A stretch of DNA of 64,000 bases from a phage. The notes under the pieces were generated by a model that worked only from the letters and a program-made list of their open reading frames with translations, did no database searches and had not been told where the DNA came from. This document shows, piece by piece, positions 2,847-31,847 of the stretch; positions within the stretch are counted from its first letter, which is position 1; the number at the start of each line of letters is the position of its first letter. A program made the translations under genes and the position numbers. The stretch lies in the sequence record PZ386973.1; one strand, 5' to 3'.

Positions 2847-3353
2847 TTACACCTTAAATTGTTGTAAGGATTTACACATTTCAAGATCCGGGCTAAATTC
2901 TAGCATATAGCTAACAGCTTTTAAATCTTGAAGATTTATCCCAGTCCTACCGTTGACTATAACTGTTGGATACTGATACATCATAGCACCAGCATCATCA
3001 AGCACACACCAATGTTTGAGCTTATGCTTTTCAACGAAGCGAAGAACAGAATTACCCCTAGATAATCCACCACCAGTAAAATCCGTTGTACCAAGAAAAC
3101 GATCGATAAGACCTAATCCGGTCATAATTCGAACGTTCTCCATTTCATTTTTAACAGAAAACCACGAAGATACCCCAACAATCATTATTGAAGAGGGACG
3201 AATAAAATCCTGAAAAGCCTTGAGAAGTGGCTTAAAAACCCAATCACTTCCGAAGAAGATCTTTTCATCATCCGGCGCATGGTGGTGCGAGATGCTCGAA
3301 TTGAGCACCCCATCAATATCTAGAAAAATAACTGGAGTATTACTTATTTCCAT
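2847..3353 (-). CDS. HAD-superfamily phosphatase-like protein
   Basis: N-terminal FLDIDGVL (DxDG motif I). Confidence 0.55.
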   Translation of the reverse strand: MEISNTPVIFLDIDGVLNSSISHHHAPDDEKIFFGSDWVFKPLLKAFQDFIRPSSIMIVGVSSWFSVKNEMENVRIMTGLGLIDRFLGTTDFTGGGLSRGNSVLRFVEKHKLKHWCVLDDAGAMMYQYPTVIVNGRTGINLQDLKAVSYMLEFSPDLEMCKSLQQFKV

Positions 3354-20568: not shown

Positions 20569-20801
20569 ATATTCATAAATTAGAGAACAGCGAGCCGATT
20601 ACGCTGAGTGCAGAATCCCAACCGGAGCGCATTGAATAGAGTCGGTGGGTTAGTTGTAAAACTAGTACACAGGGGGCGGCAATCCCGGTTAGTGGCTAGA
20701 ACGTGTAAAATGGGGCGTCTGAAACCTCTCCCTTAAACTCTTCTCTAATCTATAAATAGTGGGGTGTGGAAATCACTTATGTAGTAACACTGCCGTCCTA
20801 A

Positions 20802-20888
20802 GTTAATTGGTAGACTTCTGCACGCGGAGATTATATCTCCAGATGCGGAAAGTGCAGGTTCGAATCCTGCGGTCGGTAAGAACTGGAT
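20802..20888 (+). tRNA. tRNA-like element (isotype unresolved)
   Basis: GGTTCGAATCC T-loop; acceptor GCCGTCC/GGTCGGT has one mismatch; anticodon arm not resolved. Confidence 0.35.
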
Positions 20889-25087: not shown

Positions 25088-25162
25088 GGTTCTCAAGCTC
25101 ATATGGTATGAGCACCCGGCTCATAACCGGAAGGTACGTAGGTTCGAATCCTCGGGGAGCCA
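25088..25162 (+). tRNA. tRNA with CAT anticodon (Met or Ile2)
   Basis: Acceptor GGTTCTC/GGGAGCC with G-U pairs, D-stem GCTC/GAGC, loop CTCATAA; T-stem pairing weak. Confidence 0.55.
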
Positions 25163-25671: not shown

Positions 25672-25745
25672 GGGGGTGTAATCGAATTGGCATAGGTACT
25701 GGACTTAAAATTCAGGTTTTGTGGGTTCGAATCCCACCACCCCTA
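25672..25745 (+). tRNA. tRNA, anticodon read as TAA (Leu-type) on a class I body
   Basis: Acceptor GGGGGTG/CACCCCT, T-arm GTGGG-TTCGAAT-CCCAC, loop CTTAAAA, A73, short variable loop. Confidence 0.55.
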
Positions 25746-25763
25746 CCAAATTAAGGAATTAAG

Positions 25764-25931
25764 ATGTATAGACCTCCTCCGCCACCAACACGTCGTTCTA
25801 GGGAAGTCATCCTTATGGAATTGACGAAAAACTTCAAGGCGACTCTTGAGGATAGAGACTTAGGCACAGATGAAGACGTTGATTTCATTTGTAAACTATT
25901 AAAAATGAAACTGGAGAAACAACATGGCTAA
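25764..25931 (+). CDS. hypothetical small protein
   Basis: ATG after AAGGA; 55 codons. Confidence 0.4.
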   Translation: MYRPPPPPTRRSREVILMELTKNFKATLEDRDLGTDEDVDFICKLLKMKLEKQHG

Positions 25932-26130
25932 TCCTGAAATTACCATGCAACGACTCATGACTAAAGGCATGATAGCCGAGGCAGGTATTGAACAAGAAGT
26001 AAAAGGCTATTACGAACAGATTAAGACTATTATAGACTCTGCTAAAAACACCGGAGAAAAAGAACACGGTGCAGCAATTATGGCTATAACTCTTATTAGT
26101 CTAGACTTGGCCGAAGAATCTGGAGTTTAG
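25924..26130 (+). CDS. hypothetical protein
   Basis: Track ORF. Confidence 0.45.
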   Translation: MANPEITMQRLMTKGMIAEAGIEQEVKGYYEQIKTIIDSAKNTGEKEHGAAIMAITLISLDLAEESGV

Positions 26131-26160
26131 CTCCTCCAAACAGAATTTTTAAAAATGTAC

Positions 26161-26190
26161 TTGCTTTTTGTCTTAAATTTCTGATATAAT
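26161..26190 (+). promoter_or_regulatory. early promoter module
   Basis: TTGCTT-N18-TATAAT. Confidence 0.5.
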
Positions 26191-26220
26191 AGTCATATAA
26201 ATTGATGAAGGAGTTAACTA

Positions 26221-26496
26221 ATGCAAAATCGTGTTGTAGCAACTGGTATTGAAAGTGCAATCTGTAAATCCTGGGAAGGCTGGGAAGGTGAGATTGAATG
26301 GCTTTATTTCTACGATGTAGAACTCCTGCCGGAAGTTAAAGCTAAATGCGTTGAAGCTGGTATGGCTCCAGATGCAAAAGCTGATATTGATATTTCAATG
26401 TCTGAACTTAAAGGTCGTGTAGTTACCGTTAGTAATGAGGGGGAAGAAGTTTTTGAACTTCCGTTCTCCTTAGCTGTCACTCCTAAGTTCGACTAA
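26221..26496 (+). CDS. hypothetical protein
   Basis: Track ORF. Confidence 0.45.
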   Translation: MQNRVVATGIESAICKSWEGWEGEIEWLYFYDVELLPEVKAKCVEAGMAPDAKADIDISMSELKGRVVTVSNEGEEVFELPFSLAVTPKFD

Positions 26497-26532
26497 CTAA
26501 TACAGCACTGAGCAAGTTCTTCAAAATCTGAC

Positions 26533-26561
26533 TTGCTCAGTGCCCTAAAACTTGATATAAT
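26533..26561 (+). promoter_or_regulatory. early promoter module
   Basis: TTGCTC-N17-TATAAT inside a hairpin-forming region. Confidence 0.5.
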
Positions 26562-26624
26562 AGTTATCTAATTTGGAAACATATTTAAAAGTGTTTAAAC
26601 AAGTATTTGAATGCTTCTAAATAT

Positions 26625-26709
26625 GGGCGTTTATTCCGTAAGTGGTAGCGGAGGGGATTGTAAATCCCTGGTCATTGCGACTCGAGTGGTTCGACTCCAT
26701 TAACGCCCA
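26625..26709 (+). tRNA. tRNA-Tyr (anticodon GTA)
   Basis: Acceptor GGGCGTT/AACGCCC, loop TTGTAAA, long variable arm, encoded CCA. Confidence 0.75.
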
Positions 26710-26720
26710 CCAAATTTAAT

Positions 26721-26792
26721 GCACCTATCGTCTAATGGCTAGGACATCAGGATTTCAATCTGAGAATCGGAGTTCAATTCTCCGTGGGTGTA
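26721..26792 (+). tRNA. tRNA-Glu (anticodon TTC)
   Basis: Full cloverleaf traced (72 nt); loop ATTTCAA; T-arm CGGAG-TTCAATT-CTCCG. Confidence 0.7.
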
Positions 26793-26802
26793 CCAATTTC
26801 TG

Positions 26803-26877
26803 CATTCCTAGAGTGTTACTGGACAGCATGTCGGTCTCCAAAACCGTACGGTCTAGGTTCGAGTCCTAGTGGGTTTG
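26803..26877 (+). tRNA. tRNA-like element (possible Trp, CCA anticodon)
   Basis: T-arm CTAGG-TTCGAGT-CCTAG and loop CTCCAAA present; acceptor pairing not confirmed. Confidence 0.35.
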
Positions 26878-26886
26878 CCAAAATTT

Positions 26887-26958
26887 GCACCTTTAGCTGA
26901 GATGGATTAGCGCTTGCCTGAAGAGCTTGAGAGGTTCGTTCGATTCGAACAGGGTGCA
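26887..26958 (+). tRNA. tRNA-Phe (anticodon GAA)
   Basis: Acceptor GCACCTT/AGGGTGC, D-stem GCTG/TAGC, loop CTGAAGA; two anticodon-stem mismatches. Confidence 0.55.
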
Positions 26959-26978
26959 CCAATTTGAAGGAGATGCTG

Positions 26979-27251
26979 ATGCATCCTGAAAACTTCTTTA
27001 TTTACTGCGCGGATAAGTCGCTGAAACGTAGAATTAACAAAGTCTATCATTATCGTGCTAGTCAACAGCCTTATATATACGCTTTTGACGGTGATCACAT
27101 TCCACTAGAACAATTATCCTGTGATTACATGATATTGAAGAACTTTGACGAGACAAAGATCTCAAGCGTTCATAATCGACAGAATCCATTAACGTGGAAA
27201 TATAAGAAGAAAAAGAAAGGCATCAAATTCTTAAAAAATGTAGTTGCTTAG
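26979..27251 (+). CDS. hypothetical protein
   Basis: ATG with AAGGAG 6 nt upstream. Confidence 0.4.
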   Translation: MHPENFFIYCADKSLKRRINKVYHYRASQQPYIYAFDGDHIPLEQLSCDYMILKNFDETKISSVHNRQNPLTWKYKKKKKGIKFLKNVVA

Positions 27252-27272
27252 TTTCCAAAAGTTCTGTATAAT
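27244..27272 (+). promoter_or_regulatory. early promoter module
   Basis: TTGCTT-N17-TATAAT. Confidence 0.55.
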
Positions 27273-27320
27273 AATTACATAAATTGAACTGGAGAAGCAA
27301 CATGACAGAACAAGATAAAT

Positions 27321-27393
27321 CGACCGTTGGCTGAATGGCTTAGGCGAAGGATTGCAAATCCTTTTTATGTGAGTTCAAATCTCATGCGGTCGT
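27321..27393 (+). tRNA. tRNA-Cys (anticodon GCA)
   Basis: Acceptor CGACCGT/GCGGTCG, anticodon stem AAGGA/TCCTT, loop TTGCAAA. Confidence 0.7.
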
Positions 27394-27548
27394 CCAATTT
27401 GCTGAAAGAATTGTTAAATCAATTCAGGCACGCGTAGGAACACTGTCTCCGTAATTGAAAGATGAGACACGGTTTGGAGAGGTATGCCGCTACACGCTAC
27501 GGTGCTAACTCCGTCTAGGTGAAAATCCTAGTCAGCAATATAAATTTA

Positions 27549-27628
27549 GGGTCGTTAGCCAAGCGGTTTGGCGGTGGACTGTTAATCCATGTCGAAAGAC
27601 AACGTAGGTTCGAATCCTACACGGCCCG
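27549..27628 (+). tRNA. tRNA with GTT anticodon and 13-nt variable arm
   Basis: Acceptor GGGTCGT/ACGGCCC, D-stem GCCA/TGGC, anticodon stem GTGGA/TCCAT, loop CTGTTAA. Confidence 0.55.
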
Positions 27629-27733
27629 CCAAATTCTGTGTAGAGTTAAGTAAACCGGTAGCCAACCAGCTATCATTGCTGACATCGAATTCAGCCACAG
27701 ATACCATTTTCATTAATAACTGAGGAAACAAGC

Positions 27734-27919
27734 ATGTCCAAGAATGTAATTGCGCAGCTAGAAGTTCATCGTGATAGCACTATCAATAATATTGAAGTTG
27801 AGAAGAAATACATCGAAGAACTTAAACATGATATACTAGTAAGTCTCAACCGTCTTAATGTACGAAAAGAGTTTCTTAAAGAACTTAATGCAGCTATTGA
27901 AAAACTCAAAGCTGAGTAA
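27734..27919 (+). CDS. hypothetical small protein
   Basis: Track ORF. Confidence 0.4.
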   Translation: MSKNVIAQLEVHRDSTINNIEVEKKYIEELKHDILVSLNRLNVRKEFLKELNAAIEKLKAE

Positions 27920-27927
27920 ATAAATTA

Positions 27928-28001
27928 TGCGACCGGGGCTGGCTTGGTAATGGTACTCCCCTGTCACGGGAGAGAATGTGGGTTCAAATCCCATCGGTCG
28001 C
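27928..28001 (+). tRNA. tRNA-Asp (anticodon GTC)
   Basis: Acceptor GCGACCG/CGGTCGC, anticodon stem CTCCC/GGGAG, loop CTGTCAC. Confidence 0.75.
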
Positions 28002-28022
28002 GCCAAATAAGGTAGGTTAGCT

Positions 28023-28181
28023 ATGGAACGTAGGGAGTTTACTCCAGAAGAGATAGAGCAGATAAAAGAATCTGCTATGAAAAATGCTAGAATATCTCTG
28101 TCACTGGAAGGTATCATTATTAGTGACGTAAACTTTGAAAAAATCAAAGCCATAGCTGATGAACTGGAAAAAGTAATTTAA
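28023..28181 (+). CDS. hypothetical small protein
   Basis: ATG 28023; 52 codons. Confidence 0.4.
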   Translation: MERREFTPEEIEQIKESAMKNARISLSLEGIIISDVNFEKIKAIADELEKVI

Positions 28182-28182
28182 T

Positions 28183-28255
28183 ACATCCATAGCTCAATGG
28201 TTAGAGCTACCGCCTCTTAAGCGGAGGGTTCTAGGTTCAAGTCCTAGTGGGTGTA
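28183..28255 (+). tRNA. tRNA-Lys (anticodon CTT)
   Basis: Acceptor ACATCCA/TGGGTGT, D-stem GCTC/GAGC, loop CTCTTAA. Confidence 0.65.
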
Positions 28256-28284
28256 CCAAATTAAACTAGCACGAGAAATATGCT

Positions 28285-28632
28285 ATGATTAATGCTAAAG
28301 AAGAGTTGTTACTTGCCCTAAAGAATACTAAGTCTGAAGTTAAGTGTATTAAGATAGAATTCGGTTATTATGGGGATAAAGAAGTTTGGGTATTACCCGT
28401 AGGTTATACAGAAAAAGATATTGAAGATTTTCTAGATAATCTAGACTTTAAATATGATTCTGGTTTCGGCGGACAACTGCTTTATGGTAACGTATGGTTT
28501 ACTGATGGAACTTGGTTAGAACGTGGTGAATATGATGGTTCTGAATGGTGGGAATATAAGACTACACCAGCAATCCCAGAAGAATGCCGAACAATTAATG
28601 GTGAAGTAGATCGTACTTTACTATTAAATTAA
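28285..28632 (+). CDS. hypothetical protein
   Basis: Track ORF. Confidence 0.45.
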   Translation: MINAKEELLLALKNTKSEVKCIKIEFGYYGDKEVWVLPVGYTEKDIEDFLDNLDFKYDSGFGGQLLYGNVWFTDGTWLERGEYDGSEWWEYKTTPAIPEECRTINGEVDRTLLLN

Positions 28633-28640
28633 CAAAATTT

Positions 28641-28741
28641 CAGTGCAGAACACGGAGCTAGCAATTCGGAAGTGCTGACTCATGATAAGCTGCCTATGTA
28701 CTTGCGAAGCGGTCGTGTCCAAGACTCGGACTCTTGCACTG
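28641..28741 (+). ncRNA. candidate structured RNA closed by a long-range stem
   Basis: 5' CAGTGCA (28641-28647) pairs with 3' TGCACTG (28735-28741); no ORF. Confidence 0.3.
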
Positions 28742-28754
28742 AAAACAATCAAAC

Positions 28755-28875
28755 ATTCTAGCGTGGTTGATGGGGAAACCAGCTTGGCTAGGGCAGAAGC
28801 TCGTTCGATTCGAGTGGAAGAATGGTTCTCGTAAGTCCGCACAAGTGATAACAGGTTCGAGTCCTGTCTAGAATG
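28755..28875 (+). tRNA. tRNA-like element with two tandem T-arm hairpins
   Basis: ATTCTAG...CTAGAAT outer pairing; GCTCG-TTCGATT-CGAGT and ACAGG-TTCGAGT-CCTGT; too long for a canonical tRNA. Confidence 0.3.
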
Positions 28876-28884
28876 ACACTATAA

Positions 28885-29010
28885 AGTTTACTTATTGAGT
28901 AGGTTCCGATAGATCGGCGGGTCTATTCTGGCATTTAAGAGAGGTCTCGCAAACTTCTTTGTCAGCCGTGGGGTTCATAGCCTCCAGGTGGCCTACACAA
29001 TAAGTAAATT
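28885..29010 (+). ncRNA. candidate structured RNA closed by a 12-13 bp long-range stem
   Basis: AGTTTACTTATTG (28885-28897) pairs with CAATAAGTAAATT (28998-29010). Confidence 0.3.
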
Positions 29011-29024
29011 TATTAAAAATTCAT

Positions 29025-29053
29025 TTGCTATTCTGCTTAATTATCTGTATAAT
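29025..29053 (+). promoter_or_regulatory. early promoter module
   Basis: AAAAATTCATTTGCTA...TATAAT. Confidence 0.55.
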
Positions 29054-29085
29054 ATATTTTATAAAGTGAAGAGAAGGAAAGCAAA

Positions 29086-29244
29086 ATGAAACACAAGATA
29101 GCTCAAGTTTTTATGGCATTATGGTGTATGCCAATAGCTATAACAGCATTTAATCTAGATACTCTTACTATAGAAGAAAAATGTATCGGATTAGTTAGCG
29201 GCTTTAGTATGCTGGGCTTATCTTTGCTGTGGTTAAAGAAATAA
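29086..29244 (+). CDS. small hydrophobic membrane protein
   Basis: ATG after AGGAAAG; 52 codons with two hydrophobic segments; the overlapping minus-strand track ORF was rejected. Confidence 0.45.
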   Translation: MKHKIAQVFMALWCMPIAITAFNLDTLTIEEKCIGLVSGFSMLGLSLLWLKK

Positions 29245-29248
29245 TATT

Positions 29249-29323
29249 CTCCGTGTAGCTCAGTTTGGCCAGAGCGTTTCGTTTGGGGCGATAGGGTCGG
29301 GGGTTCAAATCCTCCCACGGAGA
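29249..29323 (+). tRNA. tRNA-Pro (anticodon TGG)
   Basis: Acceptor CTCCGTG/CACGGAG, D-arm GCTC...GAGC, loop TTTGGGG. Confidence 0.65.
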
Positions 29324-29333
29324 CCAAACAATT

Positions 29334-29407
29334 GCGGGTTAGATCTCTGGTAGAGATCGCTAGTCTCATAAGCTAGAAAGAGGTAGGTTCGATTCCTGCA
29401 CCCGCTT
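29334..29407 (+). tRNA. tRNA with CAT anticodon (Met, fMet or Ile2)
   Basis: T-arm GTAGG-TTCGATT-CCTGC, loop CTCATAA; acceptor end pairing ambiguous at position 1. Confidence 0.5.
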
Positions 29408-29430
29408 CCATTTTAATAGAGGATTTCGAA

Positions 29431-29598
29431 ATGAAAGTATTTCGATTAGTAGTAAGTGATAAACGTTTAGGTAAGAATACATCAAAATCCTTACTCGCTC
29501 ATTACGGTAAAAATTGGGATGAAGTAATGGTAGAGTTTAGTACTAATCACCCTTACCTGAAAGTTCACTCTATTAAAGAAGTATACAATGGTTACTAA
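29431..29598 (+). CDS. hypothetical small protein
   Basis: ATG 29431; 55 codons. Confidence 0.4.
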   Translation: MKVFRLVVSDKRLGKNTSKSLLAHYGKNWDEVMVEFSTNHPYLKVHSIKEVYNGY

Positions 29599-29599
29599 T

Positions 29600-29675
29600 A
29601 GATCGCTAGCTCAATAGGTTTAGTAGCATCCGACTTTTAATCGGAAGGTTCTGGGTTCAAGTCCCAGGCGATCTA
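29600..29675 (+). tRNA. tRNA-Lys (anticodon TTT)
   Basis: Acceptor AGATCGC/GCGATCT, anticodon stem TCCGA/TCGGA, loop CTTTTAA. Confidence 0.75.
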
Positions 29676-29696
29676 CCAATTTCAAGAAAAACGCAG

Positions 29697-29725
29697 TTGC
29701 TTGATGCTTAATTTCTTGTTATAAT
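29697..29725 (+). promoter_or_regulatory. early promoter module
   Basis: TTGCTT-N17-TATAAT followed by a GATGAGGATTTCTCCTCATC hairpin. Confidence 0.55.
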
Positions 29726-29963
29726 ATTTATATAAATTGATGAGGATTTCTCCTCATCATAGTTCACTAAGGTATTAGCTCGACCTAGGACTGGCTGCCA
29801 AAAAGCACGATCCCTACGATTCGGGAGAAGTTCTAGATTAGTCCACTAGATTCAGCGGCAACTGAATAGTGTATCGGGTTTGCGAGATGACGTAGTTCCT
29901 TCCGCTCGAAGCGAAGGTGCTGTAGTTACGCCGAGCTAATAGCCTTAGTAAATTAAAGAATTT

Positions 29964-30039
29964 GGGGGATGGGTCTGCTAGGAGTGGACACCTCGCTTGC
30001 ACCGAGGACATCAGAACGATTCGAATTCGTTATCCTCCA
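29964..30039 (+). tRNA. tRNA-Ala (anticodon TGC)
   Basis: Acceptor GGGGGAT/ATCCTCC, anticodon stem CCTCG/CGAGG, loop CTTGCAC. Confidence 0.65.
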
Positions 30040-30047
30040 CCAAATAC

Positions 30048-30121
30048 GCGTGATTGATGGAATGGGCATACATACCGTCCTTAGAAGTCGGGTTTTGAGG
30101 GTTCGAATCCCTTGTCACGCA
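30048..30121 (+). tRNA. tRNA, anticodon read as TAG (Leu-type) on a class I body
   Basis: Acceptor GCGTGAT/GTCACGC, T-arm GAGGG-TTCGAAT-CCCTT, loop CTTAGAA, A73; D-arm pairing unclear. Confidence 0.5.
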
Positions 30122-30236
30122 CCAAATTTGATGGTCAGAGTAAATTAAACCTACTATCTCGGTTGAGCTGTTTTAATGGGTTCGAATCCCAGCGAGGCGT
30201 AACTGCCTGGCGTGATAGAGGCATCATCTTATTATT

Positions 30237-30339: not shown

Positions 30340-30431
30340 GGTAGGTCAATCCAAAGGCTGGCGCTGGACTCCGACTTGAAATCGGTTGATCGTAGTGATA
30401 CGGTGTAAGGGTTCGATCCCCTTACCTACCT
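30340..30431 (+). tRNA. tRNA-Ser (anticodon TGA)
   Basis: Acceptor GGTAGGT/ACCTACC, anticodon stem CCGA/TCGG, loop CTTGAAA, long variable arm. Confidence 0.65.
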
Positions 30432-31492: not shown

Positions 31493-31503
31493 CCAAATAA
31501 TAG

Positions 31504-31576
31504 GCGGTTAAGCACACGGGTTGTGTCGCAGGCCTTCCAAGCCTCGCTGAGTAGGGTTCGATTCCCTCTAGCCGCT
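31504..31576 (+). tRNA. tRNA-Gly (anticodon TCC)
   Basis: Acceptor GCGGTTA/TAGCCGC, loop CTTCCAA. Confidence 0.6.
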
Positions 31577-31595: not shown

Positions 31596-31847
31596 ATGCA
31601 CGTTTTTGAGTTTCGTAATAAAAGTACCGATAAACGAGTTATTGTTATTGGAGAAACATACCGAGCATACGAACAAACTGACGGCTCTGTTATCCTGAAT
31701 GATGAGAAAGGAGGTTTTAGCTTTTATCCAGAAGAACCTTATGAAGAGTTTCGAAAACAATTTAACCTAGACTGGAGAAAGCATTTAAACACTGTTGCTT
31801 CATCTGTAGTATTGCCAACTACCAGTACTGTACCCCCTAATGGCTGA
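31596..31847 (+). CDS. hypothetical protein
   Basis: Track ORF; the minus-strand track ORF 31281-31760 across the tRNAs was rejected. Confidence 0.45.
   Translation: MHVFEFRNKSTDKRVIVIGETYRAYEQTDGSVILNDEKGGFSFYPEEPYEEFRKQFNLDWRKHLNTVASSVVLPTTSTVPPNG

Follow-up and report, generated by a model that had tools for sequence, protein, structure and literature searches.

How do two transfer RNA (tRNA) genes come to carry leucine-type anticodons when both lack the long variable arm that is the hallmark of bacterial tRNA-Leu? The question is raised by record PZ386973.1, a T5-like phage (Demerecviridae, Tequintavirus), of which we analyzed a 64-kb stretch with a G+C content of 39%; this whole stretch is called the window below. 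A sequence-only reading of the window had noticed the two genes and left two options: either the fold made by hand was wrong, or the genes are atypical tRNAs that read UUA/UUG and CUA codons. As described here, both are very probably functional phage leucine tRNAs of the short-variable-loop (type I) kind, which would be charged by the host's leucyl-tRNA synthetase (LeuRS) and would top up isoacceptors that are scarce there. Both genes are, furthermore, already known and correctly described by existing annotation.

Between 21.4 and 32.9 kb, the + strand of the window carries 22 tRNA genes called by ARAGORN, and two of these are tRNA-Leu. The first, tRNA-Leu(UAA), lies at 25672..25748 (+) and reads UUA (and UUG), and the second, tRNA-Leu(UAG), lies at 30048..30124 (+) and reads CUA (other CUN codons by wobble); each is 77 nucleotides (nt) long including an encoded CCA. 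Both were also recognized by the Rfam tRNA model RF00005, whose gathering score is 29, with 57.4 bits (E=2e-10) for 25672-25745 and 47.7 bits (E=1e-7) for 30048-30121. These matches cover the full-length model (1-71), so that both genes are tRNA by this test. The ends at 25745 and 30121 proposed in the sequence-only reading coincide exactly with the ends of the Rfam matches, namely with the discriminators, but the genes run on into the encoded CCA; A73 and CCA were read from the sequence at 25745..25748 (+) in the UAA species and at 30121..30124 (+) in the UAG species.

Seven acceptor pairs are found in each gene; these include G1.U72 for tRNA-Leu(UAA) and U7.G66 for tRNA-Leu(UAG). U8 and a Leu-type D arm were read from the sequence at 25679..25697 (+) in tRNA-Leu(UAA), where a D stem of three base pairs (bp; A10-U25, U11.G24, and C12-G23) is followed by a G13.A22 mismatch and a 9-nt D loop (A14 A15 U16 U17 G18 G19 C20 A20a U21). 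The corresponding region of tRNA-Leu(UAG), at 30055..30073 (+), has the D-stem pairs A10-U25, U11-A24, and G12-C23, again followed by G13.A22, and the D loop A14 A15 U16 G17 G18 G19 C20 A20a U21. ARAGORN and reading of the sequence place the anticodon TAA (UAA) at 25706..25708 (+) in the loop CTTAAAA and the anticodon TAG (UAG) at 30082..30084 (+) in the loop CTTAGAA. The variable loop is GUUUU (5 nt) in both: at 25716..25720 (+) in tRNA-Leu(UAA), where alignment with Escherichia coli leuZ/leuW/leuQ shows a U48 that is able to pair with A15, and at 30092..30096 (+) in tRNA-Leu(UAG), also with U48, according to the sequence and the alignment. A type II tRNA has a variable arm of at least 10 nt that forms a stem-loop, and a variable region of 5 nt falls short of this; both genes are instead type I tRNA-Leu, with a Leu anticodon, a variable loop of 4-5 nt, and an otherwise complete cloverleaf.

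We also described tRNA-Leu with a short variable loop as a 55-nt structural pattern, from which the discriminator was left out. Only these two sites match the pattern in the 64-kb window, and no match was found in 100 shuffles. ARAGORN, Rfam, and the fixed-distance pattern give the same anticodon register, by which a different register is ruled out; the option of a wrong fold can thus be dropped, automated folding having assigned neither another loop nor another isotype. The loops CTTAAAA and CTTAGAA, the short variable loops, and A73, as the sequence-only reading had them, were all confirmed.

Comparison with the annotated tRNAs of T5-like phages identifies the two genes directly. Both regions match hundreds of Escherichia/Salmonella T5-like phages at 94-99% identity, and both genes are routinely annotated as tRNA-Leu across hundreds of T5-like records. 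Across 293 phage records, identity of the 77-nt UAA gene is at least 99%, and it reaches 100% in many T5-like ones, while the UAG gene differs from its copy in Salmonella phage 5 at one position (alignment A2). In the hand-curated record of the phage 5 tRNA region (AJ604531), tRNAL2 is given as “codon recognized: UUA” and tRNAL1, which is identical to its BF23 counterpart, as “codon recognized: CUA.” By identity and by synteny with phage 5 and BF23, the UAA and UAG genes of the window are T5-group tRNAL2 and tRNAL1, respectively. No discussion of the structure or charging of T5 tRNA-Leu was found in the literature searched, where the T5 tRNA papers of the 1970s-80s were outside the reach of the search.

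The annotation of AJ604531 further states that tRNAL2 with its anticodon replaced by CUA is an “effective amber suppressor.” Since this derivative suppresses amber in vivo, it must be processed, charged, and used by ribosomes. This bears on whether the two genes could be decaying or non-translational tRNA-like genes, such as pseudogenes, decoys, or processing signals. T5-like regions do hold tRNA-like RNAs of unknown function (RNA1, RNA2, and RNA3 in AJ604531 and the element at 20792-20878 of the window), and the anticodon stem of the UAG species contains a U.U mismatch. Against this stand, besides the suppression in vivo, the near-invariance of the UAA gene in the 293 records, the intact cloverleaves of both genes, which end in an encoded CCA and clear the Rfam threshold by a wide margin, and the strong compensatory covariation in the wider family described below, and we consider decay or a non-translational role to be highly improbable.

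If the phage tRNAs are functional, the next question is with which amino acid they would be charged. Alignment A1 contains 10 sequences, namely the two window genes, leuZ (UAA), leuW (UAG), and leuQ (CAG) of E. coli K-12, and short tRNA-Leu of phages Mx1, JSF10, and LAh_6. These are collinear from end to end, and the sole difference in length is a gap of 8-10 nt in the short forms at the extra-arm hairpin. U8, A14, A15, U16, G18, G19, A20a, A22, U48, G53, U54, U55, C56, A58, and A73 are invariant in all 10, and all share a D arm with a 3-bp stem, an unpaired 13.22, and a 9-nt loop AAUNGGYAN. Among the 26 tRNA or tRNA-like genes of the window, only these two combine such a Leu-type D arm with three correctly paired stem positions. 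Anticodon-shifted copies of another phage tRNA are ruled out as an origin, given that the Leu-type D arm is unique to both and matches E. coli tRNA-Leu.

The determinants of E. coli LeuRS, as summarized in a 2023 review on tRNA identity (PMC9976931), are A73, A15:U48, G18G19, A20a, the tertiary pairs of the D and T loops, and U8:A14. Both window genes have A73, and the tertiary-core determinants (U8:A14, the Levitt pair A15:U48, G18G19, A20a, U54, U55, C56, and A58) are in place in both; judging from the sequence, the tertiary pairs U8:A14 and A15:U48 would form. Also, UAA and UAG both fall within the Leu anticodons (NAG or YAA). According to the same review, E. coli LeuRS can do without the anticodon and without the long arm, and arm-less variants stay active (PMC9976931); the missing arm is thus no argument against leucine identity. 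A long arm is indeed normal for bacterial tRNA-Leu, as the sequence-only reading held, but as a hallmark and not as a determinant of E. coli LeuRS. The natural reading would be that the window tRNAs are ordinary tRNA-Leu minus a dispensable arm.

The meaning of the two codons in the phage points in the same direction. The window encodes NrdA and NrdD that are 40% and 54% identical, respectively, to the E. coli proteins, and in these two UUA aligns with E. coli Leu at 12 of 17 sites and CUA at 10 of 20, compared with 39-60% for the other four Leu codons. UUA and CUA hence mean leucine in the phage, with no sign of recoding in these alignments. The reading of UUA/UUG and CUA that had been proposed from the sequence is supported by the anticodon loops and the Leu isotype that the automated tools assigned.

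Charging with another amino acid, or ambiguous charging, would instead lead to a partial recoding of UUA and CUA. In its favor, a short variable loop is unusual for bacterial tRNA-Leu, E. coli LeuRS failed on a type I tRNA-Leu of Streptomyces (PMC6614811), and the UAG gene is labelled “tRNA-OTHER” in one GenBank record. The full Leu identity set is, however, present in both genes, and A73 is universal among the short tRNA-Leu listed. For most other synthetases, the anticodon bases on which they rely are missing from these tRNAs. Alanyl-tRNA synthetase would find G3-C70 in both genes instead of G3.U70, and the long arm required by seryl-tRNA synthetase (SerRS; PMC9976931) is absent. In the comparison with E. 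coli orthologues, UUA and CUA fall on Leu as frequently as the remaining Leu codons, the host tRNA-Leu would read both as Leu anyway, and phage T5 has a conventional long-arm tRNA-Leu(UAG) at the same locus. Recoding thus has only a minute probability in our assessment.

As to the enzyme, the window contains four open reading frames (ORFs) of at least 450 amino acids, two of them being NrdD and NrdA and the other two lacking a Pfam match; no LeuRS is present among them in the comparison with Pfam. Among 50,697 phage records, furthermore, tblastn with E. coli LeuRS as the query gave 61 hits, none of which is in a T5-like genome. With no LeuRS of its own in the phage, the host enzyme would be the only reasonable charging route, and we infer that E. 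coli LeuRS charges both tRNAs.

A possible benefit to the phage is suggested by codon usage, which we counted in 80 ORFs of the window and in a 49-kb sample of E. coli K-12 processed alike. UUA and CUA rank first and second among the Leu codons of the window ORFs, where they account for 26.6% and 20.8% of Leu codons, compared with 11.0% and 2.5% in the E. coli sample; per 1000 codons, UUA occurs 23.3 times in the window vs 11.6 in E. coli, and CUA 18.2 vs 2.6. The codons that this AT-rich phage uses most are thus those that its host uses least, from which the tRNAs would supplement scarce isoacceptors.

Taken together, both genes behave as leucine tRNAs in every respect that was checked computationally, and the following sequence of events would be expected. 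The structure is that of a bacterial tRNA-Leu from which the extra-arm hairpin has been removed, with all the elements reported as read by E. coli LeuRS retained, including the 3-bp D stem with its 13.22 mismatch. Host LeuRS would then charge both tRNAs with leucine, the charged tRNAs would read UUA/UUG and CUA/CUN, and the phage tRNAs would top up scarce host isoacceptors during infection; the top-up, from codon statistics, and also the size of its benefit to the phage are what we infer.

Several points weigh against this interpretation. Folding of the single sequences to the minimum free energy (MFE) gives no cloverleaf for either tRNA-Leu. Such a result is common for tRNA transcripts, and the scores of the covariance model and the covariation in relatives carry more weight. 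The mismatch in the anticodon stem of the UAG species is U30.U40 (30078/30088). Also, E. coli leuW has G37 where the phage UAG species has A37 (30085). In CUN-reading tRNAs, m1G37 has G36-G37 as its context. In the viral short-arm set described below, 107 members have A and 27 have G at position 37; the long-arm tRNA-Leu(UAG) of T5 likewise has A37.

The suppressor evidence has its own weaknesses. Amber-suppressor derivatives are often mischarged by glutaminyl- or lysyl-tRNA synthetase. The note on the suppressor in AJ604531 is silent on the amino acid inserted, and no aminoacylation data for the two tRNAs were found in the literature searched. In favor, the T5 record counts Ser1, Ser3, Ala, Leu, and Tyr among the tRNAs reported to turn into suppressors. 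Synthetases for the isotypes of the first four are generally taken not to need the anticodon, but the pattern is not clean, in that Lys, Pro, and Ile2 also convert and Ser2 does not.

The most direct objection comes from the work of Fan et al. in 2019 (PMC6614811), who reported a type I tRNA-Leu(CAA) in Streptomyces coelicolor and stated that almost all bacterial tRNA-Leu are type II. E. coli LeuRS failed to charge this type I tRNA-Leu(CAA) and is described there as charging only type II tRNA-Leu; phages are unmentioned in the paper. In a crystal structure cited there, the C-terminal domain of E. coli LeuRS contacts arm nucleotides 47f-47i, and loss of the arm may cost some catalytic efficiency. 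In terms of codon supply, the benefit is correlative, and in the phage analyzed in an eLife 2023 paper, codons served by a phage-encoded tRNA were reported to be as frequent as those that have none.

The same locus in T5 itself (AY543070) provides an informative variant. T5 has an 85-nt long-arm tRNA-Leu(UAG) at 31624-31708, in the same slot directly after tRNA-Ala, and is without the tRNA-Leu(UAA) gene, at whose position the HNH homing-endonuclease gene hegA is found. Since the Leu(UAG) gene is divergent in sequence and the adjacent tRNA-Ala also differs, a cassette was replaced rather than an arm simply deleted, and the difference between T5 and the window fits tRNA cassettes exchanged around homing endonuclease genes. 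The T5-type long form occurs in about 55 records at ≥90% identity and the short form in about 164, and in phage DaisyDussoix a short UAA gene is combined with a long UAG gene. Interchange at one locus in the same hosts is good circumstantial evidence that the short and long forms do the same job.

Short-arm tRNA-Leu is by no means confined to this locus. We scanned IMG/VR and bacterial genomes (contigs with one genome per species, GTDB) with the short-arm pattern, and IMG/VR for a second time with a pattern accepting either arm length. The frequencies below refer to the first 120 loci in scan order, which were not drawn at random; since the Leu-type D-loop motif is fixed in every pattern and the either-arm pattern requires U17 in addition, tRNA-Leu with other D loops lie outside the sample. 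The short-arm scan of IMG/VR gave at least 120 loci, in which ARAGORN called at least 170 short tRNA-Leu; their anticodons among the loci listed are UAG, UAA, CAA, CAG, and GAG, and by blastn only one of the 120 loci listed is T5-like. The discriminator is A in 134 of 134 viral and 121 of 121 genomic pattern matches listed (255/255), though it is not part of the pattern. Pairing holds for 98.1% of stem cells across 131 unique phage sequences, vs about 43% in controls slid by one or two columns, and 1038 cells carry double (compensatory) changes, vs 199-258 in the slid controls. Short-arm tRNA-Leu is thus a real family under selection for the cloverleaf.

The scan accepting either arm length (at least 120 loci) allows the two forms to be compared. 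Among the 133 matches listed, 30 have a 5-nt variable loop and 96 a long arm, and ARAGORN called 43 short and 137 long tRNA-Leu in the first 120 loci (24% short). Among the loci listed, the short share is 30% (36/119) where at least five tRNAs are present and 0/23 in loci with a single tRNA. Short relatives of the window UAG gene occur in Felixounavirus, Cronobacter phage GAP31, Klebsiella phage KpS11, Pectobacterium phage Wc4-1, and Vibrio phages, and short tRNA-Leu are also found in Myxococcus phage Mx1, Vibrio phage JSF10, and Aeromonas phage LAh_6. In LAh_6, a long-arm tRNA-Leu(UAA) and a short-arm tRNA-Leu(UAG) lie about 120 nt apart (2785-2868 and 2989-3065 of locus L007). The RefSeq record of this phage has 0 of 19 tRNAs annotated, and small “hypothetical protein” coding sequences are drawn over them.

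In the bacterial scan, which gave at least 120 loci, 99 of the 120 loci listed contain a solitary short tRNA-Leu. Most of the first 80 listed are Actinomycetota, and others are in arrays of 21-29 tRNA genes. Solitary chromosomal short tRNA-Leu (74-77 nt, mostly UAA or CAA) were seen in many Actinomycetota, including Nocardia, Mycobacterium, Corynebacterium, and Bifidobacterium. These mostly have C13 and no encoded CCA, compared with G13 and an encoded CCA in the window genes. Type I tRNA-Leu thus seems widespread in Actinomycetota, beyond the published case of S. coelicolor; a paper on the toxin MenT3 (PMC11541572) implies long loops in only three of the five tRNA-Leu species of M. tuberculosis. 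As for the arrays, a metagenome-assembled genome of Acidobacteriota has a dense array of 29 tRNAs in 3 kb with short-arm tRNA-Leu, an array in Rhodoferax antarcticus has 21 tRNAs, and a contig of Planctomycetota has three short tRNA-Leu in a row. Such arrays hold several short-arm isoacceptors (cag, caa, gag, taa), sometimes beside long-arm ones. Dense tRNA arrays with short tRNA-Leu are probably mobile tRNA arrays or prophages.

The term “atypical” used in the sequence-only reading accordingly applies in comparison with cellular Proteobacteria, but not to genes that have long been known in the T5 group and whose short form is frequent in the tRNA clusters of phages and present in Actinomycetota. 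We tentatively raise, with low confidence, the possibility that short-arm tRNA-Leu is a widespread architecture enriched in mobile elements and not an oddity of T5; its carriers include several groups of E. coli and Salmonella phages. Other authors have touched on such tRNAs: Behra et al. in 2019 (PMC6582537) mentioned in passing a short-loop tRNA-Leu(TAG) in a transferred tRNA cluster of Mycobacterium, and a phylogenetic study from 2008 flagged short-armed Leu, Ser, and Tyr tRNAs of the tRNA database. No paper treating short-arm tRNA-Leu as a phage feature was found in the literature searched, in which older subscription papers are thinly covered.

What selects the short arm is a separate matter. 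The arm might have been lost for evasion of defense or for insulation, where a tRNA-Leu hidden from arm-recognizing enzymes of the host or of competitors (tRNases, nucleotidyltransferase toxins, and SerRS, which could mis-serylate it) would secure a protected supply. This is compatible with charging by host LeuRS and differs only in what selects the architecture. The concentration of short tRNA-Leu in tRNA clusters among the loci listed (36/119 vs 0/23 for solitary ones) would suit it, as would the many unrelated phages that carry the short form (one of 120 viral loci listed being T5-like) and the swap of short and long forms at one locus within T5-like phages. There are precedents, furthermore, for phage tRNAs in defense: T5 tRNA-Lys rescues infection from PARIS (PMC11464382) and tRNA-Tyr from retron Eco7 (PMC11555353). 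MenT3, the one precedent found for an arm-directed factor, anchors on the long arm of tRNA-Ser (PMC11541572), and human SLFN11 is cited as cleaving type II tRNAs. In the literature on Schlafen, PARIS, retron Eco7, and phage tRNA evasion, however, we found no anti-phage nuclease of enterobacteria directed at tRNA-Leu or at the arm. The tRNAs cleaved by the T5-restricting bacterial Schlafen are those for Lys, Met, Ala, Val, Phe, and Ile and not type II tRNAs specifically, and Leu is unmentioned in the PARIS paper (PMC11464382). About 55 T5-like phages, T5 among them, manage well with a long-arm Leu(UAG), and ARAGORN shows that tRNA-Ser and tRNA-Tyr of the window phage retain their long arms. Genome compaction or neutral loss of a dispensable arm fits the data equally well, and selection by defense is in our view rather unlikely.

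Some other tRNA and tRNA-like elements of the window deserve mention. The tRNA-like RNA at 20792-20878 (+) scores 42 bits with the Rfam tRNA model and was not called by ARAGORN. It has acceptor, D, and T arms and a Leu-type D loop (AAUUGGUAGA) with only two of three D-stem pairs; a 20-nt insert with the hairpin GGAGAU-UAU-AUCUCC replaces the 7-nt anticodon loop, no CCA is encoded, and the MFE z-score is -3.1. The element is kept in 279 T5-like records, most relatives being about 15 nt shorter in this region than the window, and its annotation varies among tRNA-Pro, tRNA-OTHER, hypothetical protein, and nothing. Rfam tRNA matches beyond those of ARAGORN were also found at 25088-25162, 30340-30430, and 31503-31576 (all +), which by position in the cluster relative to AJ604531 correspond to tRNA-Ile2 (CAU), tRNA-Ser2 (GGA), and tRNA-Gly (UCC), respectively; for 30340-30430 and 31503-31576, the tRNA-Sec model scores better than the general tRNA model. 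Finally, tRNA-Asn(GUU) at 27549-27631 (+) is 83 nt, which is long for type I, and the T5 tRNA-Asn is annotated as 78 nt.

For this window, the consequences are small, in that neither the genetic code nor phage biology needs revision. Nonetheless, short-arm tRNA-Leu looks common in phages using an E. coli-type LeuRS, which is not reflected in the synthetase literature, and its prevalence sits awkwardly with the published view of E. coli LeuRS as an enzyme that charges type II tRNA-Leu only. If the short forms are efficiently leucylated by this enzyme, the “only type II” view would be incomplete; if loss of the arm does hide a tRNA from arm-recognizing factors, it would represent a new structural route past tRNA-targeting immunity. 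T5-like phages offer natural short/long pairs of Leu(UAG) with which the role of the arm in charging, editing, decoding, and resistance to defense could be tested, and these pairs could help reconcile the failed charging of Streptomyces type I tRNA-Leu by E. coli LeuRS with the older data on the dispensable arm.

Among known systems, animal mitochondrial tRNA-Leu such as human mt-tRNA-Leu(UUR) is likewise type I, with A14 and A73 as identity elements (PMC9976931), but it belongs to a different genetic system, with a dedicated mitochondrial LeuRS and a floppy, reduced structure. In S. coelicolor, the type I tRNA-Leu(CAA) stands beside type II tRNA-Leu with a single LeuRS in one cell, as would be the case in an infected host; the Actinomycetota genes from our scan share the structural pattern including A73, but these and the Streptomyces gene are chromosomal and charged by an actinobacterial LeuRS with a specialized LSD domain. 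The Mycobacterium cluster (PMC6582537) resembles the window in that a mobile element carries a short-loop tRNA-Leu while the host isoacceptor keeps its long loop, although hosts and elements differ. E. coli leuZ, leuW, and leuQ/P/V are collinear with the phage genes and have the same D-arm architecture (N13.A22), the shared core residues, and A73, and leuZ has G1.U72 and the A36-A37-A38 context in common with the phage UAA species; they differ in being type II, with a variable region of 13-15 nt vs 5 nt, and the acceptor- and anticodon-stem sequences of the phage genes are unrelated to theirs. T5 tRNAL1 has the anticodon, slot, hosts, Leu-type D arm, and A73 of the window UAG gene and differs in its long extra arm and divergent sequence. 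The closest counterparts are tRNAL2 and tRNAL1 of phage 5 and BF23, which have the same cluster order, length, and anticodons, and from which the window genes show no difference of substance.

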